64,000 bases of DNA from an uncultured virus (IMG/VR IMGVR_UViG_3300034061_003767) (IMGVR_UViG_3300034061_003767), one strand, 5' to 3'; shown: positions 1,963 through 42,101, numbered from the stretch's first letter. The notes: generated by a model not told the origin, from the sequence alone. A program made the numbers and translations.

Positions 1963-2004
1963 AGTGGCATGATTACGATGGAAACCCACAATGGAGATAG
2001 TAAG

Positions 2005-2262
2005 ATGCAAACGAATGGTGCGGTTATCACTGGACGCTACATGATCGCAAGCCGCAGGGATGGTCGCGTTTTTAGTGGCATGGTCGAGTCGGTCAAGGCT
2101 CTAGACAAGGGTACGCTTGTGGTGCTAACGTGGTTTTCCCACGACGAAGAAAACTATGGTCACAAGTATCGTTCGTTTTATCTTGACAGCCTCACCGGCT
2201 GGGAAATGTATCTTGATGGCGAAGAGTACGATTGTGCGATTGCTTGCATGGTCGAGGCATAG
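2005..2262 (+). CDS. Small beta-barrel (WYL/Sm/SH3-like) protein, paralog family member
   Basis: GGAG RBS; GRVFSGMVESV...KGTLVVL...YRSFYLD motif shared with 3157 and 3890 ORFs. Confidence 0.65.
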   Translation: MQTNGAVITGRYMIASRRDGRVFSGMVESVKALDKGTLVVLTWFSHDEENYGHKYRSFYLDSLTGWEMYLDGEEYDCAIACMVEA

Positions 2263-2325
2263 ACTGGCCGATATAGGGGTATCTTACATCCTCCCCCCTA
2301 TGGGGGATAACCTAGGAAAAATAAA

Positions 2326-2514
2326 ATGAACAATCTTGATAAGATTTTCGGTGCTATGCGAACTGGCAAGTATGGTACGATTGTTGACCCGAAGGGCAAG
2401 GTATACGTCGGGATTATTAATAGCATCATGAGGGAAGATGGTAGCGGTCGCAACTGGATTGTAACCGTCACGAATCTGACCACGACCGACAAGATTTTCA
2501 TTCACGCTAACTGA
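2326..2514 (+). CDS. Hypothetical protein (small, beta-rich)
   Basis: AGGA RBS, ORF track. Confidence 0.7.
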   Translation: MNNLDKIFGAMRTGKYGTIVDPKGKVYVGIINSIMREDGSGRNWIVTVTNLTTTDKIFIHAN

Positions 2515-2527
2515 AAAGGATAGAAAA

Positions 2528-2689
2528 ATGAGCGATTTTGAGCGGATTATCGCGGATAGCATGATCGACGAGGATGGGCAAGAGTGGACGGTTGGGTATT
2601 TTGGGGTGGATCTGGATGATGAGGAAGAATACATCGACCACGAGGAAGACGCAGACTGGGACGTTTATGGGGAAGAGGAGTTTGCATAA
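2528..2689 (+). CDS. Small highly acidic protein (53 aa)
   Basis: Read manually: MSDFERIIADSMIDEDGQEW...DDEEEYIDHEEDADWDVYGEEEFA; AAGGA RBS. Confidence 0.7.
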   Translation: MSDFERIIADSMIDEDGQEWTVGYFGVDLDDEEEYIDHEEDADWDVYGEEEFA

Positions 2690-2964
2690 CCCCCCGATGG
2701 TAGGGATAACCACACTCTCCCCCACATGGGGGATTGTACCACCCAAACTGGGCCGTTAGAACCTGCCAAAACGGCATACAAGGCAGACTGCCAAAATGGC
2801 AGAAATCGCGCGAAATCTGCCAAAATGGCAGCCACCAGCAAATATCGTGCCAAACTGCCCCCAGCAAATATCATGCCAAATGAAAATCTTTTTTTCTCTA
2901 TTTCTTTTTTTTGACAATGCCGATATAGAATGTAGGATAAGTGAAAAGGAAAAGGAGATTGAAA

Positions 2965-3099
2965 ATGTTTGACGATGCCGAATATATCTCGCAGTGCTGC
3001 GGTTGCCCGGTTGACGTACCTTGCCCAAGCGATCCGGTCGATGATATCGTCGTGATTTGCCCAGATTGTCAAGAATGGACGTCGATTGAAATCGAGTGA
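2965..3099 (+). CDS. Small Zn-ribbon protein (44 aa)
   Basis: SQCCGCP...ICPDCQEW; AAGGAG RBS; own promoter at 2911. Confidence 0.7.
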   Translation: MFDDAEYISQCCGCPVDVPCPSDPVDDIVVICPDCQEWTSIEIE

Positions 3100-3156
3100 T
3101 TTTTTTTGTTGACAATATCGATACTAAATGTAGGATAGCAGTATCACAAGGGAGAA

Positions 3157-3405
3157 ATGCAAATGGAAAGCCGTTGCGACAAGTTTGGTACGGTTCAGGT
3201 GAACAAGGGTTTCGAGTGTGTCAAGCATAACGGCAAGGGTTATGCTGGAAATATCGTCAAGGTGTCGGCTCACCCTAGGGGTACACTTGTCACGATTGAA
3301 TGGTATCTCCCGCGTGATCCTAGTCCCACCTATCGGTCGGTCTATCTCGAAGAGTGTGAAGTGTGGTGGACTCACACTTATAACCGCGAAGTTATCACCC
3401 ATTGA
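3157..3405 (+). CDS. Small beta-barrel protein, paralog of 3890-4150
   Basis: KFGTVQV..FEC.K.NGK.YAG.IVKVS....GTLVTI shared; promoter 3109. Confidence 0.8.
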   Translation: MQMESRCDKFGTVQVNKGFECVKHNGKGYAGNIVKVSAHPRGTLVTIEWYLPRDPSPTYRSVYLEECEVWWTHTYNREVITH

Positions 3406-3424
3406 ACGAAAAGGAAAGCAAACG

Positions 3425-3607
3425 ATGAATGATGAAATCCGAAATCTGGCAAACGCTCTCGGCCTTGTGGTCGCATCGGTATGGAATGGATACACTCGAC
3501 GATGGATTGTGAGCGAACGTGACGCATACTACCCCCTCTATACTACTACCGATTATGCTACGCTGATCGAAGGATTGAAGAATGGAGGACGATTCCCCCC
3601 ATTGTAG
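3425..3607 (+). CDS. Hypothetical protein
   Basis: AAGGA RBS before ATG 3425 (MNDEIRNLAN...). Confidence 0.6.
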   Translation: MNDEIRNLANALGLVVASVWNGYTRRWIVSERDAYYPLYTTTDYATLIEGLKNGGRFPPL

Positions 3608-3889
3608 GGAATACCCCCCTCCGAAGTAGGGTGGGCTACAATACCCCCCTTATGGGGGTTGTCTCAGCCGAGCCTCTCGGCTTACAATAATGACAGTCAG
3701 CCAGTGAGACTGCCAAAATGGCAGGCGCCGCGCGCTTTCTGCCAAAATGGCAGGCAGAGCAAATCTTGTGCCAAACGCCCACCAGCAAATATCATGCCAA
3801 ACAAAAAATATTTTTCCACAATCTTTTCCTCTTTTTTTTTGTTGACAATGCCGATACCTAATGTATAATCGAGGTATAACCAAGAGGAA

Positions 3890-4150
3890 ATGAAAATGAG
3901 TAAGTTTGGAACGGTTCAGGTTGGATACGATTTCGAGTGCCTGAAGAATAACGGTAAGCGGTATGCCGGTGAGATTGTCAAGGTTTCATCGTATGCTAAG
4001 GGTACGCTGGTCACGATTCGATATTATGAGTCAGATGCCTACAAAAACTCGTATGGGGAGTGGGTCGAGGGTTTTAGTCCAGTTCACAAGTCGATATATC
4101 TTGAAGATTGTGCCGAATGGTACACTGAGGAGCCAGCCCCCCAATACTAG
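3890..4150 (+). CDS. Small beta-barrel protein, paralog of 3157-3405
   Basis: Clear sequence similarity; promoter 3842; GAGG RBS. Confidence 0.8.
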   Translation: MKMSKFGTVQVGYDFECLKNNGKRYAGEIVKVSSYAKGTLVTIRYYESDAYKNSYGEWVEGFSPVHKSIYLEDCAEWYTEEPAPQY

Positions 4151-4189
4151 GGGGTTGTGCAGTTTGGTAGGATCAAGTCAGAAAGGAAA

Positions 4190-4390
4190 ATGGTCATGTT
4201 CATCATTATGAAACGTTCGCGAGCATATGAGGGGGCCACACCCCTCGACGCCTACAGTGTTCCCGAAACGTGTGCCTGTGCTGGTGTTGAACCCGGCAAG
4301 GTATACAATAGTCGGGAGTCTGCCCAAGTTGATGCCGACAAGTTGAGCCGGTACAATCCTATCGGGTTTGTTGTGGTTTCCTGTAAATAA
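4190..4390 (+). CDS. Hypothetical protein
   Basis: AAGGA RBS, ORF track. Confidence 0.6.
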   Translation: MVMFIIMKRSRAYEGATPLDAYSVPETCACAGVEPGKVYNSRESAQVDADKLSRYNPIGFVVVSCK

Positions 4391-4418
4391 GTTTTTCTCA
4401 CCACTAAGGGTATCAAAA

Positions 4419-4736
4419 ATGTTTCCGATTATTGAAAAAGCCAAGCGTCAAGCCTACCTTTGCTTCGTGGGTCTGGCTATCCCCTGCGACAAGTCTACGG
4501 CCGATGGCGGTATGATTCGGTCTGAAAAGGTTCTGAAGTTCAATCGGTCTGCTATGCGTGATAGTGTCAACGTCAAGGCCGAAAAGGTTGACCCCCGAAT
4601 GAGTGGGGGTGAGGATACGATGATTGTTAAGGTGGGCAAGCCGGGTAGTCGGGAGAGGGTAGAGGCTTTCCGGTCACAATATGACGCTATCGCCGCTATG
4701 GGCGAGGAAGTATCCCCCTTCGCTTGGGAGGGGTGA
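4419..4736 (+). CDS. Hypothetical protein
   Basis: ORF track (internal ATG, MFPIIEKAKR). Confidence 0.65.
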   Translation: MFPIIEKAKRQAYLCFVGLAIPCDKSTADGGMIRSEKVLKFNRSAMRDSVNVKAEKVDPRMSGGEDTMIVKVGKPGSRERVEAFRSQYDAIAAMGEEVSPFAWEG

Positions 4737-4932
4737 CCCACCCACGAGAGGGGTTCTGTCAAGTTGGCAGCCTTGACTGCCAAAATGGCAGAAATCGCGC
4801 GAAATCTGCCAAAATGGCAGCCACCAGCAAATATCGTGCCAAAAGCCAAAATATTATTTTGCTATTTTTTTTGTTTGACATTCAAGGTATGGCTGGTAGA
4901 ATACCGATATACCTAGCAGAGAGGAAAAGAAA

Positions 4933-5148
4933 ATGATCGAAAACAAAATCAAAGATGCACTGACTCAGATTTGGGGAAGCGAGTCTCACAACGTAACTTT
5001 TCTGGCAACCCCCGATGGTCGGCTGTACGCTGAGTGTGAGTCTACTATGGATCGTCGCCGGTTGACTGATAGTAACTATCGTGAGATTCTGAACGATATG
5101 TTTTATATTTACTGTCTGGAAAATGCCGCTTGGATGGGGGTTTCATAG
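4933..5148 (+). CDS. Hypothetical protein
   Basis: Promoter 4875, GAGG RBS. Confidence 0.7.
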   Translation: MIENKIKDALTQIWGSESHNVTFLATPDGRLYAECESTMDRRRLTDSNYREILNDMFYIYCLENAAWMGVS

Positions 5149-5319
5149 TCCCCCTGTTGTGGGGGTTGATTTGTCTTATCCGATCCTATCGGATTGGCAA
5201 GGTGGGCTATAGTCAGCCAAAATGAGGGCCTAATGGAAATCGTGAGTTTGGTATTGACATTGTGGATATCGGGTGGTATGATTCTTAGTGTGGTTTGGTT
5301 GCTCTCTTTGGAGTAAAAA

Positions 5320-5535
5320 ATGGATTACCAGAAAATCTATAAGTTTGATAATGGTTATGGGGCTAGTGTGGTTTGTAACTTTGGAACCTATGGGGCCAAA
5401 GATGGTCTTTTCGAGGTTGCCGTTCTTGACAGTAACGGAGAGATTGCATACAATACGCCCGTTGCTAGTGACGTTATCGGCTGGCTTGACTTTGCAGACG
5501 TTGCGGATATTCTGAATAAGATTAAGGCTCTCTAA
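5320..5535 (+). CDS. Phage hypothetical protein (FDNGYGASVV family)
   Basis: KFDNGYGASVV...GLFEVAVL...DVIGWL motif typical of small phage proteins; GGAG RBS. Confidence 0.75.
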   Translation: MDYQKIYKFDNGYGASVVCNFGTYGAKDGLFEVAVLDSNGEIAYNTPVASDVIGWLDFADVADILNKIKAL

Positions 5536-5550
5536 TCTAAGGAAAATAAA

Positions 5551-5853
5551 ATGACTTACGCCGAAGCGGTTTCTATGGTGCAAGGTAAAACCAATCGTAA
5601 GACTCGAAAGATTGGTAATAATACCTATGCGGAAATCGAGTATGATAACAGTGTTTCTATTCGGTTGCATGGTACATCGGTTGTAAGGTTTTATCCTAAT
5701 GGGCTGGTGAAGTTGAATAGTGGCGGGTGGCGAACCAGCACCACAAAAGATAGAATCAACAAGTATAGCCCCGTGAGTGTTTACCAAAAAAACTTTGAGT
5801 GGTTTTTGCGTGATCATACTCCGTTTGAAGATAATATCTTGGTTCGTAACTAA
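5551..5853 (+). CDS. Phage hypothetical protein
   Basis: LNSGGWRTSTTKDRIN motif; AAGGA RBS. Confidence 0.75.
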   Translation: MTYAEAVSMVQGKTNRKTRKIGNNTYAEIEYDNSVSIRLHGTSVVRFYPNGLVKLNSGGWRTSTTKDRINKYSPVSVYQKNFEWFLRDHTPFEDNILVRN

Positions 5854-6180
5854 AGAAAGGGGCTAGGGATGGCCGATTATATTAACTGGTATGTATTCTT
5901 TGCTGGATTTACTATTGGTGGTGCTTGTGTTTATAGTATTTGTGAACTACTTTTTCCTTTGAGTAAAAAAGATGAATAAGGCGGATTATATTCTGTTGAG
6001 TTTCTCTTTTGTGATGGGCTGCGTTCTTACCTATCTTCTCAACTAAAACAAGGGCTGCCAATATGGCAGTTTCCGCGGCCGAGCTGCCAAAATGGCAGAG
6101 ATTATTTTTGTGGATTTTTTTAGTTGACAAACCGATATCTAATGGTAGAATCAGCGTATCACCCCAACGGAGAAACGACG

Positions 6181-6369
6181 ATGAATCAGTTTCCTCGGAT
6201 GATGGCTCTTCTGGACGATACGGACACGATCAATGCTCTTCTGGCTCAACTGGTTGATGATGGATCAGTCGAGCCGATTGATGATCCTAATAACCTGACC
6301 GACTTTTGGGATTGGGCCGAAGTGGTCGGGATTGTGGATGAGTTTGCCCCTATTGACAGCATGGTTTGA
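6181..6369 (+). CDS. Small acidic hypothetical protein
   Basis: Promoter 6124, GGAG RBS. Confidence 0.7.
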   Translation: MNQFPRMMALLDDTDTINALLAQLVDDGSVEPIDDPNNLTDFWDWAEVVGIVDEFAPIDSMV

Positions 6370-6390
6370 TTAGTGTAAAAAGGATAAGTC

Positions 6391-6657
6391 ATGAGCCACC
6401 CCGATCCCCTTTACGATAAGGAAAACACGATGAGCCAGGATTCTTTTGACCGTTTCGATGATATGGCCGAGCGTACCATTTATCCGTGGATTGACGATGA
6501 GTCGCACGACAGCGACGATGCTAACTACGATGACCATGATGACTTTTTCGATGAGGATGATTACGACGATAGCATGGACGGAGATCATGATTCCGCGATG
6601 GAATCGGCGGGTTGGGGAACCGACGAGGACTACGGATACTACGGAGACGATTATTGA
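6391..6657 (+). CDS. Highly acidic Asp-rich protein
   Basis: DDHDDFFDEDDYDDSMDGDHDSAMESAGWGTDEDYG. Confidence 0.75.
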   Translation: MSHPDPLYDKENTMSQDSFDRFDDMAERTIYPWIDDESHDSDDANYDDHDDFFDEDDYDDSMDGDHDSAMESAGWGTDEDYGYYGDDY

Positions 6658-6793
6658 GCAAAACCCCGATCTGCCAAAATGGCAGCGGGGCCGCGATTTC
6701 TGCCAAAATGGCATACAAAGATTTTCTTATTTTTTTTCTTGACAGTGCCGATCTATATGGTATCCTTAGAGCATCACCCCAAAGGAAACGATA

Positions 6794-7129
6794 ATGACCT
6801 ACAACGGCTATTCTAACTACGAAACGTGGGCTGTTCAGTTGTGGATCGACAATAGTGAATCGTCCAGTGCGTTCTGGCATCGGCTTGCGGAAGAGATTTA
6901 TAATCACGCAGCATCCGAACAGGCTCATTTTAGCAAGGTCGAGGATGCTACTTGTATTCTGGCCGAAAAACTCCGCGATAGTTACAACGGCGGAATGGAA
7001 GCGCTTTTGAGTGATGGTAACGCAACCGGAACAGTTTGGGCCGATTTGCTGAACGCTAGTGTTTGTGCTGTTAACTTCCATGAGATTGCCAAGAATCTGA
7101 TGGAAAGTGTTGTAGCAGTTCCTGCTTGA
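6794..7129 (+). CDS. Phage hypothetical protein (YNGYSNYETW family)
   Basis: N-terminal YNGxxNYETW motif, C-terminal VNFHEIA; promoter 6739. Confidence 0.8.
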   Translation: MTYNGYSNYETWAVQLWIDNSESSSAFWHRLAEEIYNHAASEQAHFSKVEDATCILAEKLRDSYNGGMEALLSDGNATGTVWADLLNASVCAVNFHEIAKNLMESVVAVPA

Positions 7130-7193
7130 CAAACGATTTTCTTGTGGTATGCTAGTTTTATTGAGTGAAGGATTTCTAAACGAAAGGGTTTTT

Positions 7194-7601
7194 ATGAACG
7201 ACACGATTCTTTTTGGTTTGATTTTTGCTGGTGTGGCCGCTGCTATTTGTGCGTTTTCGTGGTTTCATGTTTATCGTGGAGTGCATGATAGTCTTACGAA
7301 TGCTAAGGTTGGTCAGGTTTATAACTTTAAGTATTTGCAGCCTGTGACTGATGTGCCTGAGCGTTTTATGGCTAGGGTGGTTGGTGTTCAAACTTTTACT
7401 GAGGATTATCTTAGTCGTTTGAATAGTAAGAGTCGTTATCGTCGGAATGATCCTGAGTTTCAGCGTAGTAAGCATCTTGTGACCGCTCAAACTTTTGATG
7501 GTAAGATTAGGAACTTTTATGCTGAGCGAACCACGGATGTTCGTCGCCCCCTGTTGGGAGGGGTACTCTTTAAGAGTGGAATGGCGAGCCTCTTCTTTTA
7601 G
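7194..7601 (+). CDS. Membrane-anchored protein with WYL/SH3-like domain
   Basis: N-terminal TM helix; GQVYNFKY...HLVTAQTFDGKIRNFYAER. Confidence 0.6.
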   Translation: MNDTILFGLIFAGVAAAICAFSWFHVYRGVHDSLTNAKVGQVYNFKYLQPVTDVPERFMARVVGVQTFTEDYLSRLNSKSRYRRNDPEFQRSKHLVTAQTFDGKIRNFYAERTTDVRRPLLGGVLFKSGMASLFF

Positions 7602-7854
7602 GAGGTTCCTCGTCTGCCAAAGTGGCAGGCGGGCCGCGAAAACTGCCAAAATGGCAAGATATTTTCTCACTTGACAACCTTCTAACAGCCGATACAATAA
7701 GCGTATGATTACATCAAACTGCTACTCTTGGAAAGTTTTTCGTTTTAGCCATACATTTGTTGGTTATGTTATGGCTAGTTCTCAATATGAAGCCAATATT
7801 CTTGCAAAAGAAAAGTATGGCGATTTCGTTTGGATTGAACGAGTTCGCTAGTCT

Positions 7855-7926
7855 GGCCCCGTAGTATAGTGGTTAGTACACTGGGCTTTCATCCCAGAGA
7901 CTGGAGTTCGATTCTCCACGGGGCTA
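7855..7926 (+). tRNA. trnE: tRNA-Glu(TTC)
   Basis: Cloverleaf GGCCCCG/CGGGGCT; anticodon arm CTGGG-CT TTC AT-CCCAG; T-loop TTCGATT. Confidence 0.95.
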
Positions 7927-7927
7927 C

Positions 7928-8017
7928 TAGAGAGAACAGGAATCGTAAACCCGCCACTCTCAAAATCCAATGAGTCCAACCAAAGGATTTGTGGCTATGG
8001 CTACCCTGTCTCTTCTA
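7928..8017 (+). ncRNA. Putative structured small RNA
   Basis: AGAG(A)ACAGG/CCTGTCTCT outer stem, GCCAC/GTGGC, two inner hairpins; no ORF. Confidence 0.5.
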
Positions 8018-8120
8018 ATCCTTCGGATTTGGTTAGCGTGGTGTAGTCAGCGAGAAGCACAAAAAATATTTTTTCAAGAAACCCTCTTGACAAGCCGATA
8101 ATAGATAGTACAATGATTGA

Positions 8121-8556
8121 AGAACAAGTGAAAACTTGTTGGTTATGTCGGGCCGAGTAGCCGGTAAAAACGGTAGTTGATGTCCTAGGAAACGTCTTCT
8201 ACAATCGGTCCTAACAATACAAACATCCGTGGGTCAAGCCAGACTAGATTGGGATAACCACTTCGATTATAGATATACATACCGTGTTGATCACTGGTCA
8301 AAAACTGTATATCGTTGCCTGTTGGGGTTATACAACGGGCTAGAAGTCCAATCTATGAGGGATAGCGTCCTCACCACGGCCAATACAACCAGTAACCGTT
8401 CCCAAGAGCCAGACCAGAGCGGGTCTTATGTGCTAGCAATGCCCGCTTTGCAGGGAGGATTTCCGTGGACGGTTTCCACCAGTTTTTACCTTGCTCCAAG
8501 GGTTCATAATATCGGAGTATTGGTGGGTTATAGAATCGGGGCGTAAACGATTCGCT
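8121..8556 (+). ncRNA. Large (~435 nt) multi-domain structured ncRNA, family unknown
   Basis: Own promoter 8087-8114; more than 15 nested helices including long-range pairs (see findings); no RBS-led ORF. Confidence 0.75.
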
Positions 8557-8601
8557 GGTTGACAAAATAAAAACACAGTGTAGAATACGAGAGTAAGACA
8601 T

Positions 8602-8688
8602 GGCGGGCGTAGCGTAATGGTAGCGTGTGTAAAATCGGTGGCAGAGATCTACTGTCTACACGAAATGGTTCGATTCCATTCCCCGTCC
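8602..8688 (+). ncRNA. tRNA-like RNA with extended anticodon arm
   Basis: Acceptor GGCGGG/CCCGTC, D-loop TAATGGTA, T-arm AATGG-TTCGATT-CCATT; 25-nt insert within GTGTA/TACAC; promoter 8559. Confidence 0.65.
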
Positions 8689-8691
8689 CTA

Positions 8692-8843
8692 GTCACCAAC
8701 GAAACTCCGATTCATTCGGTGTGCTACCCTCCATAATGAGATCATAGCCTATATTGGTGACACAATACAACTCTGCTGATAGTTTCCTTAGAAATAAGGT
8801 TGAATAAATATAGTGCCGAGTGCTTATTCGTAAAACTATCAGT
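8692..8843 (+). ncRNA. Two tandem three-way-junction RNA structures
   Basis: GTCACCAA/TTGGTGAC (8692-8761) and GCTGATAGTTT/AAACTATCAGT (8775-8843) with CCTTA-GAAA-TAAGG. Confidence 0.5.
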
Positions 8844-8962
8844 GTGTCGGCCAAAATGACAGGCCGAGCGGCCGATCTGCCAAAATGACAGATATTTTTT
8901 TGTGGACTTTGCGTATTGACAAGCCGATAATAGACTATAGAATACGAGCATAGGAGAGAAAC

Positions 8963-9136
8963 ATGAATCACGACCCATATTGGACATTCCCACAGTTTCC
9001 TGAGAATAATACTTGGGAGATTCGCTATTTGTGTTGGCGAGCGTGTGGCGAAACCAGAGAACACAGCACACGACTCGCTAATGAGGGACGTATGCCTGCT
9101 AACTGGTGGATGCTTTACAGAGATGATGGAAGGTAA
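8963..9136 (+). CDS. Small Trp-rich hypothetical protein (57 aa)
   Basis: Read manually: MNHDPYWTFPQFPENNTWEIRYLCW...; AGGAG RBS; promoter 8916. Confidence 0.65.
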   Translation: MNHDPYWTFPQFPENNTWEIRYLCWRACGETREHSTRLANEGRMPANWWMLYRDDGR

Positions 9137-9137
9137 A

Positions 9138-9338
9138 ATGAGAATAAGTAAAAAACAAATATCAGATGCTCTTAGTATTGATAGTGACGATCTATCGTCA
9201 AAGGATATGGGTATTGCATTATTGAACATTGAGAGTATACTTGATAGCGTTGCTGAAAACCTTGATGATGATTTTGAATCTGCGGCTTTGGGCGATGCTT
9301 CTAATCTAATACAAATGATAAGAGAGGCATTGACTTGA
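9138..9338 (+). CDS. Hypothetical acidic protein
   Basis: Internal ATG (MRISKKQI) coupled to upstream stop. Confidence 0.6.
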   Translation: MRISKKQISDALSIDSDDLSSKDMGIALLNIESILDSVAENLDDDFESAALGDASNLIQMIREALT

Positions 9339-9570
9339 CGATAAAGAATGGTATAATGGTGACAAATGAGAATCTTCCGTAAAATAATTCTGTTCTTGCC
9401 GTCTTTGACCATGTTCTTTCTGGCATACTTTAGTTTTATTTGTGATAACGAGGCTACACACTTTAGTTTTAGGTGGAAATAATGACCGTTAATGAGTTTA
9501 TTGACGAGTTTCTTGATCCAAAGTTTCAAGAAATATTGAAGATTGTGGAACAGGTTTTGGAGGAAAATAA

Positions 9571-9795
9571 ATGAACTGGCATTATGATAATCCTATTAGG
9601 GACCGTAAGTATCTTTGTTGTGTAAAGGGATACTCTGAACCTATTGATCTTCTCTGGAATAAAGAGCAGGGAGGGTGGGGTGATTGGTGGCATGGTGAAT
9701 ATGACGATGGTTTGGCAGAATGGGATCAGTTTGACAATGATCTAGTGGTATGCTATATTGGTTTTGATGAGATTCCTATGCCGGAGGGTTGGTAA
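9571..9795 (+). CDS. Hypothetical protein (DUF551-like, Trp-rich)
   Basis: GGAGG RBS; MNW...KYLCCV...IPMPEGW. Confidence 0.65.
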   Translation: MNWHYDNPIRDRKYLCCVKGYSEPIDLLWNKEQGGWGDWWHGEYDDGLAEWDQFDNDLVVCYIGFDEIPMPEGW

Positions 9796-10049
9796 TGGAA
9801 TGGCTTAGTTTTTTTGGTTATCGTCGCCCTATTAATGGGCAAAAGGTTTATTACTTTGGGCCAGATATTGGGGTATGGCGGGGAAGATATGAGATTCATA
9901 GAGATGATCCTGTGAGTGAACATATTCTTATTTGTGAAGAAAGTCCCGGTCTTGTGGATCGTATGGATGCTCCGTGGTGGATGCCGTATGAGGGACAACC
10001 AAAACCAAAACGACCAACTACCGATTATCCAGAGGATTACCCGCAATGA
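9795..10049 (+). CDS. Hypothetical protein (DUF551-like)
   Basis: MEW...WWMPY...P pattern; TAATG coupling. Confidence 0.65.
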   Translation: MEWLSFFGYRRPINGQKVYYFGPDIGVWRGRYEIHRDDPVSEHILICEESPGLVDRMDAPWWMPYEGQPKPKRPTTDYPEDYPQ

Positions 10050-10582
10050 TTACTATTTCAACCGATGAGTTTCGTCGTCTTATCGGCCATATTCAGGAGT
10101 ACCTTGACAATCCTAATCTACCTAATACAATGGCGAAGATTGCTATCGACACCCTAAAGATGTACGATATTGAAGCCTACGAGGAAAATGCAAAAAATGA
10201 ATGAAGATCGTGAAAAGGCTATGGTTACTATCATCAACTTTTTTAACTCTCGCATGGGTGCGATGAGCAAGAATAATGTAGATAAGGCTAAAGAGTTGAT
10301 CTCTACTCATGAGATTGCGGCTTCTGAACTGGTGGATAAATACGTGAGGCTTGTCTATGAAAACTCTTAGTGATATTTGTCCGTGTGGGGCGTGTGATGT
10401 TCTGGTGTGGAAGTATGATGATTATGGATTAATCTGGAACTTCTGCCAGCAATGCCATTGGTGGTATATCGACAACGATTAACTGCCATAATGGCGGTGG
10501 TCGCGGCCGAACTGCCAAAATGGCAGAATATTTTTCTTATAGAACGGTATTGACAGTGCCGATACTAATGGTATACTTAGGG

Positions 10583-10666
10583 AAACAATGGGCGGGGACA
10601 ACCACAATGATATCAAAGAAGGTTGTCTGAAATGTCCGTCGAGTATGGCCCAAGCCGACATTGTTT
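10583..10666 (+). ncRNA. Putative promoter-driven structured small RNA
   Basis: Promoter 10550-10577; AAACAATG/CATTGTTT, GGCGGG/TCCGTC, GACAACC/GGTTGTC, GGC-CCAA-GCC. Confidence 0.55.
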
Positions 10667-10769
10667 TTCCTAATCCTCCGGATTTGGCTGGGGTGGCTGT
10701 AGTCAGCGAAAGTTTAAAGATCTTGACAAGAGTTGGTCGATAGAGTATACTCTAGTTATAGGAGAAAAA

Positions 10770-10994
10770 ATGGATATGAGCGTTATAGCAAGATTTGAGG
10801 CTCTGGACAGACTTAGTGAATCTCTTACAAAGCAACAGATTGAAGATTTACAGATAGTTATTAAAAACACCAAAGAAGAACTAGAGATTTGTGAAAACTG
10901 TGGAGATAGTTGGGTTGGAAATACAGAAAAAACTCTAGAGATGCTTGCTAACAGTTTAAACTTTCAACCAGACTATCCTGAATACGACTATTGA
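10770..10994 (+). CDS. Hypothetical protein
   Basis: Promoter 10723, AGGAG RBS. Confidence 0.7.
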   Translation: MDMSVIARFEALDRLSESLTKQQIEDLQIVIKNTKEELEICENCGDSWVGNTEKTLEMLANSLNFQPDYPEYDY

Positions 10995-11025
10995 CAACTG
11001 ATAGCCGATAGAATATAGTATAAGC

Positions 11026-11451
11026 ATGAAACAGAAACCACTATACGGCGAAGTTCGTTTTCACCTTTCTAACGGTGAGCATTATATGCACTGGCAAGTT
11101 AAGGTTAAGCAGGGTGGAAAAACTGTTGATGTGTATTATTATGACCCCAAAGAATATCAGTTGGAAATGAGGGGTTGTAAGTTGTGGAACCGGCCGAATA
11201 AGGCTAAACAGGTATTTGAGGCTGGTGTGCATGATGTTAGTGGGTGGGTGCGGTGTGAAGAAGTTATGTTGAGGAAGGATTTTCATCCCGCTCTACCTAT
11301 TGACAATCTTGAGAAGTTGTTTTATAATCCACTTCGTGATCCACACTGGCGACGAGAAAGCGACAATAACGAGTTCGTTTGGGACGGTAGCGAGTATGCT
11401 ACTCTTCTGACTAACGGCAAACAAGTTTACATTTTGGAAGAAAGGATTTAA
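11026..11451 (+). CDS. Hypothetical protein
   Basis: 141-aa ORF after promoter 10991. Confidence 0.75.
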   Translation: MKQKPLYGEVRFHLSNGEHYMHWQVKVKQGGKTVDVYYYDPKEYQLEMRGCKLWNRPNKAKQVFEAGVHDVSGWVRCEEVMLRKDFHPALPIDNLEKLFYNPLRDPHWRRESDNNEFVWDGSEYATLLTNGKQVYILEERI

Positions 11452-11822
11452 TGATGATTAATCTGCAACTGAGCGTTCGTGAGGCTATGGAACTTGCTTT
11501 CTATGCTAGGGAGGACATTAGAGAGCGTATCACTCAGGCTTTTGAGGTGGCTTTGGGTGTGAACCAGCGTTGTACTGTTACGATCACTAGGGGTATGAGT
11601 TTGGATAACCGTATCCCGTGTATCAAGGCTATTCGCCAGTATACTGGTTGGGGTTTGAAGGAGAGCAAGGAGTGGACTGATGATCTGGTTGGTGGTTGGA
11701 AGGGCGATAGGTTCGTTCCTGCTACTCACCACACCAACAGCATCACTCTCAAGAATCCTGAGATGGCGGAAAATCTGCTGCGTGACCTGACCACTTTGGG
11801 TTGTGAGGGTTATCTCTCATAA
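11451..11822 (+). CDS. Ribosomal protein bL12 (L7/L12) C-terminal-domain-like protein
   Basis: NRIPCIKAIRQYTGWGLKESKEWTD resembles KI.VIKAVR..TGLGLKEAK; AE.L...L..LGC ending. Confidence 0.75.
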   Translation: MMINLQLSVREAMELAFYAREDIRERITQAFEVALGVNQRCTVTITRGMSLDNRIPCIKAIRQYTGWGLKESKEWTDDLVGGWKGDRFVPATHHTNSITLKNPEMAENLLRDLTTLGCEGYLS

Positions 11823-12050
11823 CTGCCAAAGCGGCAGGCGCCGCGGCCGATCTGCCAAAATGACACCCAAAAAATATTCACGAACGGCTGTTGACTTGCC
11901 GATACTCTATGGTAGAATGATAGCATCACACGACAAGACGCCAACCGATCACGACAACACAAAAGTTCGGATTGGCTCTTGACAAGTGATGATTGGGATG
12001 ATAAGATACGTTTGTTCGGTTTGATTAACACTAACTTGGAGAGATTTACC

Positions 12051-12305
12051 ATGAAGAAGTTTTCGTTTGTTGTTGATATTGTTGCTACTGATCTTGACCG
12101 TGAGGTTGTGGTTGATTCGATTGGTGATTGTCTGCGTGATGCTCTGCCGTCCGATGTTCATGCTAACGTCAAGGCCGGTGAGGTCAAGGCTTTTAGCGAG
12201 CAGGGTTATAAGGTTTGGCGGGCTAGGGTTACTGGCGTGACTGCCAAGGCTGCTGGCGATGCTCACAATAGCAAGGTCGAGCAGGAAGTCGAGGCTGTTG
12301 CCTGA
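12051..12305 (+). CDS. Hypothetical protein
   Basis: GGAG RBS, MKKFSFVVDIV; promoter 11979. Confidence 0.7.
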   Translation: MKKFSFVVDIVATDLDREVVVDSIGDCLRDALPSDVHANVKAGEVKAFSEQGYKVWRARVTGVTAKAAGDAHNSKVEQEVEAVA

Positions 12306-12328
12306 GCCTAGCATATCTACTATAATAT

Positions 12329-12369
12329 CCGATAGACCGCTAGTGGCGAACTGGCGGCTATCGGTTTTT
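12329..12369 (+). terminator. Intrinsic terminator-like hairpin
   Basis: CCGATAG-A-CCGCTAG/CTGGCGG-CTATCGG followed by TTTTT. Confidence 0.65.
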
Positions 12370-12371
12370 AT

Positions 12372-12443
12372 GGCCCCATAGTTAAATGGATATAACAACT
12401 GCCTTCTAAGCAGTTATTGGAGGTTCGATTCCTCCTGGGGCTA
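12372..12443 (+). tRNA. trnR: tRNA-Arg(TCT)
   Basis: Cloverleaf; ACTGC-CT TCT AA-GCAGT. Confidence 0.95.
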
Positions 12444-12565
12444 TTATCCTGCCAAAACGGCAGGCTCCGCGGCCGATCTGCCAAAATGGCAGCTATTTTT
12501 CTTCAAGTTTTTTTGCTTGACAAGCCGATATTCTATTGTAGAATCAGTAGCACAGGAGACATAAA

Positions 12566-13270
12566 ATGAAAACAGCAGACGGTAACGATAAGTTGGGCAA
12601 GGGTTGCATTGTGGTTTCGCGTCCGGTTGGCGATACTTGTCCGTCCGATTGCGACTATCTCAATAATGGCTGCTATGCTGAGGCTACGGAAAATCAGTAT
12701 AAAAATGCTCGTACTGCCGGGTTTGCTAATCTAGTCACGGAAAAGCATAAAATCCGTGCTATGATTCTTGACGCTAAGAAGCGTAAAAAGTCTATTCGCT
12801 GGCACGAACGTGGCGACTGGTTTCTCAATGGCGAACTTGACCTAGACTATGTTGCTAATGTAACGTGGGCGTGTGAGAGTATTCTTGCCGATGGTGATAG
12901 TCTGCCTGATATGTGGTTTTATACCCATATTTATGATAGTCGGCTTGTTGCACTGGAAAAGTATATGAACGTATATGCTAGTGTGCATGATGATAATGAT
13001 ATGGGCGAGGCTATGGCACAAGGCTTCAAACTGTTCGCATGGTGCGATAGCGATATGAAAATCGCCCCGAAGCGTCCAAAGAGTAAAGTCAAGGCGGAAG
13101 CATGGAGGAAAGCGTTGCCCAAACTTGTTGTGCTGAATGGTAGCAAGTTTGTAACGTGTCCGGAAATCCGTCGTGGTCGGTCAGAAATCACTTGCACTGG
13201 CACGAAAGATAGTATATCATGCGACTTGTGCGTTCGCGGTTTGGCTAATGTTCTATTCCCTGCCCATTGA
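12566..13270 (+). CDS. Gp88-like Cys-rich phage protein (radical-SAM-related fold)
   Basis: TCPSDC...GCYA, IRWHERGDW, WFYTH, C-terminal CP...C...CDLC. Confidence 0.6.
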   Translation: MKTADGNDKLGKGCIVVSRPVGDTCPSDCDYLNNGCYAEATENQYKNARTAGFANLVTEKHKIRAMILDAKKRKKSIRWHERGDWFLNGELDLDYVANVTWACESILADGDSLPDMWFYTHIYDSRLVALEKYMNVYASVHDDNDMGEAMAQGFKLFAWCDSDMKIAPKRPKSKVKAEAWRKALPKLVVLNGSKFVTCPEIRRGRSEITCTGTKDSISCDLCVRGLANVLFPAH

Positions 13271-13277
13271 GGATAAT

Positions 13278-13520
13278 ATGAAAAGTTTTACATATAAATG
13301 TCTGCCGATTGCAGAAGTGTGCGAATATAACGACTTGCTTTTGATGGATGTTATGGATGCTATTTGTGATAGTGATATTAGTTTTGGTACTAACTATGAT
13401 ACTATTATCTCTCACACTCAACTAGAAAGTATTCTGGAAGATGCTGGTATTGCTATCGACGGATTAGATTATAATAATCACGATGCTGATGGATTAGTTC
13501 TTATCGCCTTGGGGAGTTGA
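13278..13520 (+). CDS. Hypothetical protein
   Basis: GAGGA RBS, MKSFTYKCL. Confidence 0.6.
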   Translation: MKSFTYKCLPIAEVCEYNDLLLMDVMDAICDSDISFGTNYDTIISHTQLESILEDAGIAIDGLDYNNHDADGLVLIALGS

Positions 13521-13524
13521 GCAG

Positions 13525-13770
13525 ATGAGTAAGTGGTATGTAAAAAGTAATACGGTCGAAAAGATTGTTAGTATTCCTCATAGTAGTCCTATGATGGCTG
13601 CTATTCAGGTGTTTAATGATACTAATGAGTTTGATATTTTTGACGAATATTTTTATGTGGACGAACGTGGATTCCGTGACTATACAAATGCTGATAGTTT
13701 AACCCAGATTATTAAAACGCCCAAAGTTATGATTCGTGCTAAAGAGCAACAGGAGGAAGATCTGCCATAA
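13525..13770 (+). CDS. Hypothetical protein
   Basis: ORF track, GGAG RBS. Confidence 0.65.
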   Translation: MSKWYVKSNTVEKIVSIPHSSPMMAAIQVFNDTNEFDIFDEYFYVDERGFRDYTNADSLTQIIKTPKVMIRAKEQQEEDLP

Positions 13771-14280
13771 TGGCAGCCTCCGCGGGCCAACTGCCAAAAT
13801 GGCATTAAAGTTCCAAGCCGATCATGCCGATAATATCCGTATGGACGAGAAAAAGGATTTGACAAGGATAACACTTATGCTACAATGGATTGGTGTGATT
13901 GTTGCTATTTTAGGCTTTGCTTATAATGGTGTAAAAGATTATCAAAAGGGTGAGATTAAACTTCCTGCTTTGCAACAAAAACAGGAGTTGACAAAAACGA
14001 ATCATCCGATACAATATTGTTTAATGGCATACGACCCTAATCTAAATAAAGTTTTCTATCAGCACGAAAATGGACAATGGTATGATTACGCTCCACAACA
14101 ACGACGATACGCGACCACGCCGCAAGTACGGCACTATTAAACTCAAGGTTAAGAAGCCTTGGGAAGTGTCTACTGGTCACAAGGAACACAGGGATACGCT
14201 TATGGATAATCGCCCCAAGCGACAGCGTACTCGCAAGGCTATTGACAGGAGTTGGCAAAGAGAGTATGATATGTAGTCTT

Positions 14281-14353
14281 GCCGATGTAACTCAGTTGGT
14301 AGAGTAGCGGTTTTGTAAACCGCCTGTCGGGGGTTCAAATCCCTCCATCGGCC
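14281..14353 (+). tRNA. trnT: tRNA-Thr(TGT)
   Basis: Cloverleaf; GCGGT-TT TGT AA-ACCGC. Confidence 0.95.
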
Positions 14354-14354
14354 C

Positions 14355-14425
14355 TCCGAGATGGTGAAACGGTATCACAGAGGACTTTGGATCCTTTATT
14401 CTACGTTCGAATCGTAGTCTCGGAA
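14355..14425 (+). tRNA. trnQ: tRNA-Gln(TTG)
   Basis: Cloverleaf; GAGGA-CT TTG GA-TCCTT. Confidence 0.93.
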
Positions 14426-14453
14426 TCGGAGGCTGACGTTTGAGTTGCGATGG

Positions 14454-14525
14454 TGGCGAGTAGCACAACGGTAGTGCAAGCGGCTGTTAACCGCTAGGTT
14501 ACAGGTTCGAATCCTGTCTCGCCAG
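14454..14525 (+). tRNA. trnN: tRNA-Asn(GTT)
   Basis: Cloverleaf; AGCGG-CT GTT AA-CCGCT. Confidence 0.95.
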
Positions 14526-14626
14526 TTTCAGCTAATCCTACGGATTTGGTTGTGGTGGTTGTAGTCAGCGAAAATCTCAAGTGTGTGGTGTTGACAAACC
14601 GATAATATCTGATATACTGCTGATAT

Positions 14627-14699
14627 GGATCTCTAACTCAATCGGTAGAGTAGCGGCCTTTTAAGCCGTAGGTTCTGGGTTCGAGTCCCAGGGGGTCCA
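14627..14699 (+). tRNA. trnK: tRNA-Lys(TTT)
   Basis: Cloverleaf; GCGGC-CT TTT AA-GCCGT; promoter 14591. Confidence 0.95.
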
Positions 14700-14748
14700 C
14701 TTGACAGTTGTTTGGTTTGGTGTAGAATAGAGCAAAGGAGAAACGACT

Positions 14749-14925
14749 ATGCCTGATGATGAATATGAGTTTCATTATGATAGTGTTGTGGAAGATTCCG
14801 ACGCTCTATATGAAGATGACTTTTTTGATGTGATTTTTGATGATGATGACGATTATGATTCTCCTGACCAACAGGACTATGAATATTACTATCATAATGT
14901 AGTGGATGAACTAGACAACGAATAG
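14749..14925 (+). CDS. Highly acidic Asp/Tyr-rich protein (58 aa)
   Basis: Read manually: MPDDEYEFHYDSVVEDSDALYEDDFFDVIFDDDDDYD...; AAGGAG RBS; promoter 14701. Confidence 0.75.
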   Translation: MPDDEYEFHYDSVVEDSDALYEDDFFDVIFDDDDDYDSPDQQDYEYYYHNVVDELDNE

Positions 14926-14938
14926 CCCTTTCTCGTCT

Positions 14939-15030
14939 GGTGGACGCAACTTGGTGGGACAAGTATTCTATACCTAGGCATAACGCCTTATCTATCCTTT
15001 CTTAGTACGTTCGAATCGTGCCGTCCATCT
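14939..15030 (+). ncRNA. tRNA-like RNA with non-canonical central region
   Basis: GGTGGACG/CGTCCATC acceptor, ACTTG-GTGGGA-CAAGT D-arm, GTACG-TTCGAAT-CGTGC T-arm. Confidence 0.65.
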
Positions 15031-15041
15031 TTGACTCTCCT

Positions 15042-15518
15042 ATGGAAGACGTAAGAAAAACAACCGAAGGCAAGTATATTCAGGGTGCTAGCCACACTTG
15101 CCACGTTTTGAATCATAAGGCTAGAAATAAGATTATTATTAAGGCTGTTTGTGATCTAAGAAAAATAGCAGATAGTTTTGATAGCATTGCCTGCTGCGGT
15201 GTAAGTGGATTGATGGTGGTTCCACAAATCGCAGAGTTACTCAACAAGAATATTGTTGTGGTAAGAAAGGGGGAACAATGCTATTCAGAGTTTCGTACCG
15301 AGGGAGTGGCCCCTTTTCAATATATTATATTAGACGATTTAATCTGTTCTGGTTCGACCGTTCGGCATATTAAAAAGGTAATCAAGGATGAATACTCGCG
15401 TTCTCATTGTGTTGGGGTGTATTGTTATCTGCCTAATGAATGTGCTTATCGTAACGATGAGGATGGTTCTAAACTCTGCAAGCGTGATCTCGGTGTTTCG
15501 CTCCTAAATATTGGGTGA
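15042..15518 (+). CDS. Type I phosphoribosyltransferase
   Basis: PRPP-binding motif YIILDDLICSGSTV; VVVRK. Confidence 0.8.
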   Translation: MEDVRKTTEGKYIQGASHTCHVLNHKARNKIIIKAVCDLRKIADSFDSIACCGVSGLMVVPQIAELLNKNIVVVRKGEQCYSEFRTEGVAPFQYIILDDLICSGSTVRHIKKVIKDEYSRSHCVGVYCYLPNECAYRNDEDGSKLCKRDLGVSLLNIG

Positions 15519-15661
15519 CTGCCACAATGGCAGCATCCGCGGACCGCCTGCCAAAATGGCAGAAAAGATTTTCTGGATTTCTAACGCTTGACAAGCCGAA
15601 TACATACTGTAGAATCAGCGTATCGGAACGAAAGAAGTTAGCCACCACGAAGGAGATTAAG

Positions 15662-16606
15662 ATGCCTGCTGCTGTTGAAAAGATGATGTTTGTTGGTGAG
15701 ACACCTTGGCATGGCCTTGGTAATCAGGTCGATGAGGGTATCGCTGTTAACGATGCTATTGTCGAGGCTGGTCTGGATTGGGAAGTGGGTCTGAAGGATT
15801 TGCAGACCGTTGATGGTACTCCTGTTAATCATCGTGCAACATATCGCAAGAGCGATGGTAGCATCCTTGGTGTTGTTGGACCTCGCTATACCCCTCTCCA
15901 GAATAAAGATGCGTTTGATTGGTTCCAGCCTTTCCTTGATGCTAACGAGTGTTCGATCCATACTGCCGGATCGCTCCACCTTGGTCAAAAGGTCTGGGTT
16001 CTCGCTCAACTCAACCGCGACAATAGCGAGATTGTTCCGGGTGATGAGGTTAGCAAGTTTATCCTGCTGAGTAATAGCCACGACGGTACAACGGCTATTC
16101 GTGTCGGATACACTCCGATTCGTGTGGTCTGCGTGAATACGCTGTCATATGCTCACAAGCATGCGAACAGCCAACTGATTCGTATTCGTCACACTCGCTC
16201 CAGCCAGAAGAATCTGGAACAGGTTCGTGATATTATGGACAATATTAACGCTGGTTTTGAGGCTACTGCGGAACAGTATCGGTTCCTTGCTGGTAAGCAG
16301 TTTAACCAGAAGGATATTGATAAGTATGTTAAGGTTGTGCTGAATATTAAGGGTGCTGACGAGGATATTAAGACTCGTACCCGTAATATTATGGACGATA
16401 TTATGAGCCGTATCGAAGGCCCAAAGCAGACTGCGGCTAATGTTCGCGGTACTTGGTGGGCTGCTTATAATGGGTTCAATGAATATCTGAACTATGGTAA
16501 GGGTCGCACGACTGACAACCGGCTCGATAGCCTCTGGTTCGGCCAGAACGCTAACGAGAATAATAAGGCGTTGGAATCCGCTCTGGAGTTTGCCAACGCG
16601 ATCTAG
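15662..16606 (+). CDS. DUF932 (TIGR03299 phage/plasmid-like) protein
   Basis: TPWHGLG, Y.PLQN..AF, LLSNSHDGT, TPIRVVCVNTL, IRHT, GTWWAAYNG motifs. Confidence 0.9.
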   Translation: MPAAVEKMMFVGETPWHGLGNQVDEGIAVNDAIVEAGLDWEVGLKDLQTVDGTPVNHRATYRKSDGSILGVVGPRYTPLQNKDAFDWFQPFLDANECSIHTAGSLHLGQKVWVLAQLNRDNSEIVPGDEVSKFILLSNSHDGTTAIRVGYTPIRVVCVNTLSYAHKHANSQLIRIRHTRSSQKNLEQVRDIMDNINAGFEATAEQYRFLAGKQFNQKDIDKYVKVVLNIKGADEDIKTRTRNIMDDIMSRIEGPKQTAANVRGTWWAAYNGFNEYLNYGKGRTTDNRLDSLWFGQNANENNKALESALEFANAI

Positions 16607-16626
16607 TCTTCCTTTCGTGGCGTGGT

Positions 16627-16668
16627 AAGAGCCGCCGTAGGGGTAATGCCCTGCGGCGGTTTCTTTTT
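16627..16668 (+). terminator. Intrinsic terminator
   Basis: GCCGCCGTAGGG-GTAATG-CCCTGCGGCGGT followed by TTCTTTTT. Confidence 0.85.
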
Positions 16669-18308: not shown

Positions 18309-18395
18309 GGAGAGATGGCTGAGTGGACTATAGCAACGGTTTACTAAACCGTCGAGGGTTAAAATCCTCCGGGGGTTCGAATCCCTCTCTCTCCG
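18309..18395 (+). tRNA. trnS: tRNA-Ser(ACT), rare A34 anticodon
   Basis: GGAGAGA/TCTCTCC-G; long variable arm; ACGGT-TT ACT AA-ACCGT. Confidence 0.9.
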
Positions 18396-40701: not shown

Positions 40702-40757
40702 CAGGGATTGGTCGATAAGGTATAATACGAGTGTTGGTGGTTGATCTTTCACAATAT

Positions 40758-40830
40758 GGGGCGTTCGTCTAATGGTAAAAGACCGTAGTCTTATTAACTA
40801 CAGAAGGGAGTTCGATTCTCTCACGCCCTA
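40758..40830 (+). tRNA. tRNA with TAT anticodon (Ile-UAU), atypical
   Basis: GGGGCGT/ACGCCCT-A; GTAGT-CT TAT TA-ACTAC; T at position 37; promoter 40698. Confidence 0.8.
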
Positions 40831-40831
40831 T

Positions 40832-41963: not shown

Positions 41964-42101
41964 CTTAATATAAAGAAAGAATAATATGAGTTTATGGAAA
42001 AAGTTTTGGAAGAAACTAAAGAAAGAAGAAACTCAAGATTCTGAAAAAATACAAGAAGATAAGTATCTGAAAAAGTTAAAGAAAAAACTCAAGAAATACA
42101 A

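Follow-up and report, generated by a model that had tools for sequence, protein, structure and literature searches.

Results

The RNA locus and its features

Within a 64,000-nucleotide stretch of DNA from the uncultured virus IMGVR_UViG_3300034061_003767 (the window, with positions counted from its first letter), positions 8121-8560 of the plus strand hold a non-coding RNA with a promoter of its own, from an uncultured T4-like phage of lake water. A PHROGs scan of 19 open reading frames (ORFs) names rIIA, rIIB, DNA ligase, RNA ligase and clamp loader, a Pfam scan of 40 ORFs adds ThyX, UvdE, endonuclease VII and a SpoU methylase, among others, and the window further holds ten transfer RNA (tRNA) genes and one transfer-messenger RNA (tmRNA) gene, while its DNA is also present in lake-water metagenome runs; the assignment to a T4-like lake phage follows from these observations taken together. 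The RNA belongs to a family that is real, strongly supported and apparently uncatalogued, of which the window carries a three-module member.

A sequence-only reading of the locus had proposed a structured RNA at 8121..8556, behind a TTGACA-N16-TACAAT promoter and folded into three domains. The promoter is present and the region stands, with the 5' start probably near 8121, whereas the 3' end has to be moved, the last helix closing at 8560. The features on which the following analysis draws are these:

8087-8114, plus strand: sigma-70-type promoter, TTGACA at 8087-8092, a 16-nt spacer and TACAAT at 8109-8114, matching 11 of 12 consensus positions
8121-8211, plus strand: accessory module M1 (domain 1 of the sequence-only reading), with a hairpin at 8123-8140, a closing helix 8150-8156/8205-8211 and an inner hairpin
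8184-8189, plus strand: palindrome CCTAGG in the M1 inner-hairpin loop, kept as CCUAGG in 15 of 15 M1 copies
8212-8226, plus strand: linker 1, TAACAATACAAACAT, of AAUACAA type; A7, A9, A10 and A11 of the D2 alignment are at least 90% conserved
8227-8379, plus strand: module D2, a four-way junction of P1 8227-8232/8374-8379, P2 8233-8235/8242-8244, the long arm P3 and P4 8357-8361/8368-8372
D2 arm P3, plus strand: P3a 8245-8252/8348-8355, P3b 8260-8264/8343-8347, variable hairpin P3c 8272-8313 and P3d 8317-8324/8333-8340
8254-8331, plus strand: D2 pseudoknot, bulge ATAACC 8254-8259 with the P3d loop GGTTAT 8326-8331, 6 bp
8380-8386, plus strand: linker 2, CCAATAC, which with the AA of P1 gives AAUACAA; A5, T6, A7, C8, A9 and A10 of the D3 alignment are invariant or at least 90% conserved
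8387-8560, plus strand: module D3, a four-way junction with P1 AACCAG 8387-8392/CTGGTT 8555-8560 and P2 AACCGTT 8394-8400/GACGGTT 8468-8474
D3 helices P2a and P2b, plus strand: GAGCC 8406-8410/GG-TTT 8457-8462, and 8415-8424/8441-8450
8432-8437, plus strand: self-complementary hexamer GCTAGC in the D3 P2b apical loop (8425-8440), a proposed symmetric kissing-loop contact
D3 variable arm P3, plus strand: TCCACCAG 8475-8482 with TTGGTGGG 8520-8527
D3 helix P4, plus strand: 8533-8537/8549-8553, with the conserved loop GGGGCGTAAAC

Compensatory base changes support D2, its pseudoknot and D3

We wrote the D2 structure by hand on a 46-sequence alignment and turned it into the covariance model R1, which on searching 61 sources gave 60 matches, 55 of them distinct. 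Across the 34 pairs of the model, 95.9% of 1798 alignment cells are paired, a score that the fitting of the D2 alignment to R1 itself favours, and 23 pairs show compensatory change on both sides; none of 500 shuffles reaches any of five measures, and slid controls are 36-42% paired. The structure so defined is a four-way junction in which few spacer bases, or none, separate the closing helix P1, the short hairpin P2, the long arm P3 and the hairpin P4; P3 is interrupted by a 7-nt bulge and terminates in a three-way junction that includes a variable hairpin. Each of the seven helices that the sequence-only reading had named in its second domain falls inside this structure.

A scan for covarying column pairs further uncovered a pseudoknot between the P3 bulge and the P3d loop, which was then tested as six pairs: 99.7% of 304 cells are paired, as against 23-50% in slid controls, and individual pairs switch identity between relatives, one being G-C in 27, C-G in 23 and U-A in 1 and another A-U in 45 and G-C in 6. 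No shuffle among 500 equals its share of paired cells or its covariation score, while 27 of 500 reach its number of pairs with two-sided change.

For D3, model R2 yields 51 matches, in which 31 pairs are satisfied in 93.4% of 1385 cells and 18 pairs show two-sided change; again none of 500 shuffles reaches the measures, and slid controls are 30-54% paired. The covariation stems from P2a, P3 and P4, P1 and P2 being nearly invariant and thus little informative. At least eight sequence versions of the P3 arm occur, all of them foldable, and the arm is missing in four relatives, while the P2 interior comes in several versions with a common helix plan. Here the earlier helix assignment fared less evenly: GAGCGGGT/GCCCGCTT and GAATCG/CGATTC are retained, whereas CCAATAC/GTATTGG, GAGCC/GGTTC, GCAGGG/CCTTGC and GTGGA/TCCAC are lost, since they clash with supported pairings or involve segments lacking in most relatives.

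Covariation among relatives is strong in both modules, with two-sided change in 23/34 D2 pairs and 18/31 D3 pairs, and together with the pseudoknot it bears out the proposal of a structured non-coding RNA (ncRNA) beside tRNA genes. Folding energy adds a moderate signal when taken alone: the minimum free energy of 8121-8556 is -135 kcal/mol compared with -123.2 +/- 5.6 kcal/mol for shuffled sequences (z = -2.12), a stability reached by 1 of 100 shuffles. A homology between D2 and D3, suggested by a common GACYAGA stretch, was dropped, most D2 variants showing no likeness.

Relatives recur across contigs of uncultured phages and lack an Rfam match

Relatives were gathered from IMG/VR with an exact 32-mer, a D2 motif and a D3 motif, and homologous sequence was found in 96 of the 173 loci so collected (59 distinct). 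A gapped D3 pattern run over metagenomes contributed at least 121 further stretches, and with the metagenome contigs added there are at least 104 distinct D3 interiors from at least 203 loci. Run over 185,579 species genomes, the same pattern matched five times, and one match is real (L180, on a 141-kb contig of a metagenome-assembled genome); candidates in Saprospiraceae, Rhodanobacter, Nitrosospira and Streptomyces fail both covariance models and were rejected. Within the reach of these searches, the RNA family appears to be frequent among contigs of uncultured phages and missing from cellular genomes. L232 and L233 are D3 pattern matches about 1.4 kb from each other on a single metagenome contig, and the RNA may thus be present twice in some phages.

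None of the 4227 families in Rfam 15 matches 8121-8560 at its gathering score. With the expectation value (E) relaxed to 10 over 7800-9000, D2 and D3 stay unmatched and the returns are limited to tRNA-Glu (7855-7926), the Rfam match in that interval, and a weak element at 8603-8687; at E up to 1 the RNA is unmatched in 15 relatives as well. Models of RNase P RNA, tmRNA, group I and II introns and riboswitches fit neither 8121-8560 nor these 15 relatives, in keeping with the earlier observation that RNase P, intron and tmRNA signatures are missing. Neither the window region nor a consensus-like relative, used as blastn queries, found a match among GenBank phages. The proposal of a new large ncRNA class fits these results, so far as Rfam 15 and GenBank phages show, and novelty stands for Rfam 15, whereas the accompanying suggestion of a divergent GOLLD-like RNA fails: not one of five relatives' records passes the GOLLD model RF02032 (416 positions, cut-off 150 bits), the best score being 14.5 bits and lying elsewhere in the record, and only the layout is GOLLD-like. 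For six of our loci the metagenome numbers are not in the tables of Fremin et al. 2023, who list 8,495 candidate RNAs from IMG/VR, and their catalogue may nevertheless include pieces of the family.

The locus lies behind a conserved promoter type and does not encode a protein

In 54 of 55 distinct relatives the first D2 is preceded, at a distance of no more than 330 nt, by a promoter of TTGACA/TACAAT form. In the window, 12 promoter-like sites occur in 7600-9200, compared with 3.1 +/- 1.5 in shuffles, and four plus-strand promoters with an 11/12 match fall inside 1.3 kb (7671, 8087, 8559 and 8916). The spacer is conserved too (TTGACAAGCCGATAATAGA...TAGAAT) at 8087-8114, at 8916-8943 and in dozens of related phages, which suggests that the site is more than a bare sigma-70 promoter. 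That the RNA is expressed early, as the sequence-only reading held, could not be upheld, the sigma-70-type promoter being its single ground.

The sole long plus-strand ORF of the region, 8229-8546 (GTG start, 105 codons), is not a gene: its frame is interrupted by 3-14 stops in 37 of 38 relatives, with the first stop within 4-32 codons, and close relatives L006 and L007 carry 1-nt insertions or deletions within it, the frame staying open, for 87 codons, in L165. Many conserved pairs are instead G-U on the plus strand (for instance GU in 37/55 and UG in 40/48), a strand-specific signal because the other strand would give A-C, and the earlier view that frequent G-U pairs reflect selection at the RNA level is confirmed.

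At the 3' side the next promoter (8559-8586, plus strand, TTGACA-16-TAGAAT) overlaps with its -35 box the last two bases of D3 P1 and drives a tRNA-like gene at 8603-8687. Among the matches listed, the 117 distinct contexts 3' of D3 comprise 60 U-runs, 12 that continue straight into the TTGACA of a next promoter, 14 linker-like sequences and 31 others, several of which again carry AATACAA. Two of four RNA-library runs yielded no contig on the stretch and the other two short contigs only, among them one covering 8242-8363 (2 differences) and one covering 8359-8560 (8 differences, 2 gaps) that stops at the last base of D3; a third RNA-library contig extends past 8565 in a relative.

Separately closed modules are joined by a repeated linker

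The first alignment of relatives showed conservation beginning near 8213 and stopping at 8560, with parts shuffled between phages. The RNA is built as a series of modules, each closed by itself, with single-stranded linkers of AAUACAA type between them; D2 and D3 are kept throughout the family, and other modules vary before, between and after them. The single closed three-domain fold of the sequence-only reading consequently gives way to an arrangement in which domain 1 is optional and D2 and D3 are closed independently, with no base pairing found between them.

D2 and D3 occur in fixed order, both being found in 45 complete loci. The two modules adjoin directly in 20 of 49 distinct pairs, and in the remaining 29 a gap of 62-223 nt is occupied by inserts of at least eight recurring types, each with its own closing helix. 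AATAC begins 22 of these 29 inserts, and two insert types (L054 and L160) end in a tRNA-type T arm. In 11 of the 54 relatives with an upstream promoter the -10 box ends 10 nt before D2, from which it follows that the minimal RNA consists of D2 and D3. Elsewhere the space upstream of D2 is taken up by M1, by other modules, by a tRNA-like unit of the 8603-8687 type or by a true tRNA-Gly.

M1 is an optional accessory module, absent from the 11 relatives with the promoter 10 nt before D2. A regular expression for it returned 19 matches, 15 of them homologous copies, and its earlier helix assignments hold: in AACAAGT/ACTTGTT (8123-8140) a C-G pair gives way to U-A as a compensatory change, the 15 copies contain both GGGCCGA/TCGGTCC (8150/8205) and the inner hairpins, and the stem of the inner hairpin is changed in two variants.

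A palindromic loop in D3 changes sequence and stays palindromic

D3 P2b presents an apical loop throughout, which in most variants holds a self-complementary hexamer, GCTAGC in the window, and P2b hairpin versions with other stems hold UCAUGA, GGUACC, UGCGCA or UGAUCA, so that of eight different palindromic hexamers seen in this loop only the palindromic character, and not the sequence, is conserved. In one hairpin context GCUAGC is replaced by GGUACC, with positions 2 and 5 both changed and self-pairing kept. A simple hairpin finder detects a loop hexamer that is a Watson-Crick palindrome in 15 of 24 distinct hairpins, compared with 2.66 expected from loop shuffles; the figure is an undercount because the finder misplaces the GGUACC type. 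With metagenomes included, and among the matches listed, a stem-flanked palindromic hexamer is present in 85 of 104 interiors and in 22 of 29 clusters, where 9.8 would be expected.

Comparable loops occur outside D3, in the CCUAGG of M1 and in another inserted module that keeps TGTACA at its hairpin tip in 4 of 4 copies despite a changing stem. The variable hairpin of D2 gives no palindromic-loop signal, UGAUCA being found there only within the stem of the window's own subtype.

Surroundings of the RNA in the window

The RNA lies in an island (2001-18000) that holds most of the tRNA genes and few long ORFs, and where G+C content is 0.40-0.47 as against 0.27-0.39 elsewhere in the window. The tRNA-like gene downstream reads as follows:

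8603-8687, own promoter at 8559-8586: tRNA-like gene with a canonical T arm GGTTCGATTCC and about 25 extra bases in the anticodon loop

It scores 26 bits with the Rfam tRNA model, below the cut-off of 29, and is not called by ARAGORN. Units of this type, carrying other insertions, occur inside the RNA array upstream of D2 in L012, L134, L165 and L172. A further conserved module lies at about 8762-8850 and also follows D3 in L001 and L006; it is preceded by ACAATACAA and closed by the helix CTGATAGTTT/AAACTATCAG. In L006, L013, L080 and L088 this module type has tRNA-like genes directly after it, and the anticodon loops that ARAGORN assigns to them are odd (a 4-base 'gaga', a 2-base 'aa' and 'aaa').

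Adjacency to tRNA genes is frequent without being a rule, an ARAGORN tRNA being found in the fetched flanks of only 7 of 43 relatives, and among 51 loci the RNA has no constant protein neighbour, the best family occurring in 16. Further along the window, ARAGORN calls a tRNA-Ser at 18309-18395 whose anticodon, ACT, is unusual in having A at the wobble position; at 40156-40831 a gene for a SpoU-family RNA methylase directly precedes tRNA-Ile(tat), and the tmRNA at 41610-41966 scores 116.6 bits. The ORF 54699-55700 matches the Pfam family Volactin, an actin-like protein, with 210.6 bits, and is followed by a trypsin-like protease gene at 55764-56519.

Discussion

To our knowledge only a handful of large structured RNAs are known from bacteria and phages, and all three imaged so far are RNA-only multimers of unknown function. 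The RNA described here shares several traits with them. With GOLLD and ROOL, the likeness extends to being phage-encoded, to the vicinity of tRNA genes, to an origin in lake metagenomes and to the lack of a protein partner gene; GOLLD also has conserved parts split by a variable linker able to hold tRNA or tRNA-like units, just as D2 and D3 are split here by inserts. This GOLLD-like layout, in which D2, inserted modules including two tRNA-like ones, and D3 follow each other, is a resemblance that does not amount to homology; neither covariance model matches the RNA, the conserved core measures about 330 nt as opposed to about 600-800, and the chain of separately closed modules with its repeated AAUACAA linker sets it apart.

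By context, the nearest analogue is the pair of stable RNAs rnaC and rnaD of phage T4 (NC_000866, 70908-71171), likewise two adjacent units of a T4-type phage, lying in or beside a tRNA cluster, co-transcribed with tRNAs and sized like stable RNAs (119 and 139 nt, with D2 and D3 at about 150 and 175); rnaC ends in a tRNA-type T arm and has a long insert, like the tRNA-like unit at 8603-8687. D2 and D3 have neither a canonical T arm nor a CCA end, and R1 and R2 find no match in T4 69000-74000 (L177) at E up to 0.01. D2 moreover resembles tRNA (RF00005) in outline, being a cloverleaf whose closing helix has 6 bp and whose three arms are one short (loop of 6-8 nt), one long and one of 5 bp (loop of 6-7 nt). 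It departs from tRNA in the missing spacer bases between arms, in the missing T-loop consensus and in a long arm that is a pseudoknotted three-way junction; the tRNA model matches neither D2 nor D3 at E up to 10, and ARAGORN calls none there.

In our favoured interpretation, to which we give a probability of only about 0.42, the RNA as a whole is an RNA-only, self-associating scaffold with a tRNA-shaped head, and symmetric kissing-loop self-association is its most likely mode of action, with D2 probably serving as the working head. A palindromic hexamer does not self-pair within a single molecule. The D3 P2b hexamer would thus form a symmetric kissing loop with its counterpart in another copy of the RNA, M1 could provide a second such contact through its CCUAGG loop, and the RNA would act as an RNA-only dimer or larger assembly of the kind solved for OLE, ROOL and GOLLD. 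Palindrome switching in OLE L9.3 and GOLLD L21a is given by Kretsch et al. as support for intermolecular kissing loops in cryo-EM maps, and these covarying palindromic loops mark symmetric contacts between copies; the D3 P2b loop bears the same signature of palindromes that switch and yet stay palindromic. Whereas the kissing loops of OLE and GOLLD were seen by cryo-EM, self-pairing is here a prediction from sequence. More speculatively, the tRNA-shaped D2 and the tRNA-like cargo modules might be displayed on such a scaffold and might, early in infection, engage a host or phage tRNA-handling factor, which could be a defence nuclease or an enzyme of tRNA processing.

A possible alternative of almost the same likelihood is that the RNA is processed into separate species, which would be compatible with self-association. 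Here the transcript would be a polycistronic precursor akin to a tRNA operon, cut at its A-rich linkers and embedded tRNAs into small RNAs (M1, D2, D3 and others) that each act alone, like T4 species 1 and 2 (rnaC and rnaD), which are cut out by tRNA-processing enzymes. Much of what weighs against a self-associating scaffold speaks for such a precursor. The column-pair scan found no covarying base pair between D2 and D3, only wobble-driven, lineage-correlated pairs, and joint folding or action as one molecule is therefore without support; D2 occurs without a full D3 in L073 and L021, where the first 16-40 nt of D3 are followed by a protein gene; and true tRNAs lie in the same transcripts as tRNA-like units, a tRNA-Gly directly preceding D2 in L172, which implies that the transcript is cut, since tRNA-processing enzymes would split it. 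Each module, besides, has its own closing helix with the same linker before it, modules shuffle freely between phages, T4 has its two stable RNAs directly after tRNA-Arg, and one RNA-library contig is confined to 8359-8560. The scaffold is further weakened by the absence of a terminator of the usual form after D3, and the RNA-library contigs, a weak sign of transcription, establish presence and do not prove transcription, strand or ends. The palindromes themselves call for caution: the binomial tail for 22 of 29 clusters among the matches listed (4.5e-6) comes with a lenient criterion, which 21-48% of shuffles pass for the apical palindrome, and with clusters that are not independent; 7 of the 29 clusters lack the palindrome; and the hexamers can be read equally as DNA sites. 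A precursor of freely shuffled units, for its part, is at odds with the fixed order of D2 and D3 and their co-occurrence in 45 loci, R1 and R2 match nothing in the T4 tRNA region, and the palindromic loop would still need explaining, as self-association is compatible with processing.

The remaining explanations carry far less weight. A divergent member of GOLLD or ROOL is very improbable: the shared setting (phage, tRNA neighbourhood, lake water) and a layout resembling the GOLLD of Kretsch et al. (a conserved 3' part, a less conserved 5' part, a variable linker that may hold tRNA, and palindromic kissing loops) are offset by the failure of RF02032 and of the Rfam scans described above, ROOL being included in Rfam according to Kretsch et al., and by the roughly 330 nt of D2 and D3 together, as against more than 800 stated there for many GOLLD RNAs. 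Still less probable is an array that serves a reverse transcriptase as template, in the manner of the phage UG27 ncRNAs (bioRxiv 10.64898/2026.09.22.753630), whose units measure about 149 and 167 nt, include a pseudoknot and are gained and lost. The unit sizes (about 150 and 170 nt), the one-unit pseudoknot and the modular turnover agree, whereas neither a reverse transcriptase nor accessory genes are found among the window ORFs scanned with Pfam (40) and PHROGs (19), the best neighbour family reaches only 16 of 51 loci, UG27 units repeat one fold where the modules here differ in fold and show no visible common motif, and the UG27 hosts are gut Bacteroidota and Bacillota. Least probable of all is a protein-coding gene at 8229-8546, or a boundary or promoter cassette such as PeSL acting as DNA. 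The window does hold a 105-codon ORF amid densely spaced early promoters, but stops in 37 of 38 relatives refute the gene, compensatory changes and strand-specific G-U pairs across more than 60 base pairs argue against a DNA element, and a loop-bulge pseudoknot would be meaningless in duplex DNA.

Returning to the self-associating scaffold, a more far-reaching version, which we consider unlikely, would make this RNA a third, unrelated and modular class of phage RNA-only assemblies, in which D3, with M1 where present, joins copies by symmetric kissing loops while AAUACAA-linked slots swap cargo RNAs. If true, this would be a natural plug-in RNA scaffold for the early stage of infection, a shared self-assembling chassis presenting tRNA mimics as well as further aptamer-like folds. 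Bolder still, D2 and D3, which together match a two-domain RNase P RNA approximately in size, might themselves form a ribozyme directed at the repeated linkers.

The family is short, with a conserved core of about 330 nt, abundant in lake viromes and endowed with a clean secondary structure and a pseudoknot, and the putative dimer contact is testable by a single loop mutation together with its compensatory pair. Its swappable modules and embedded tRNA-like units bear on the purpose of the stable RNAs that T4-type phages encode in their tRNA clusters as well as on why giant phage RNAs adjoin tRNA genes, making it a tractable model for both questions.

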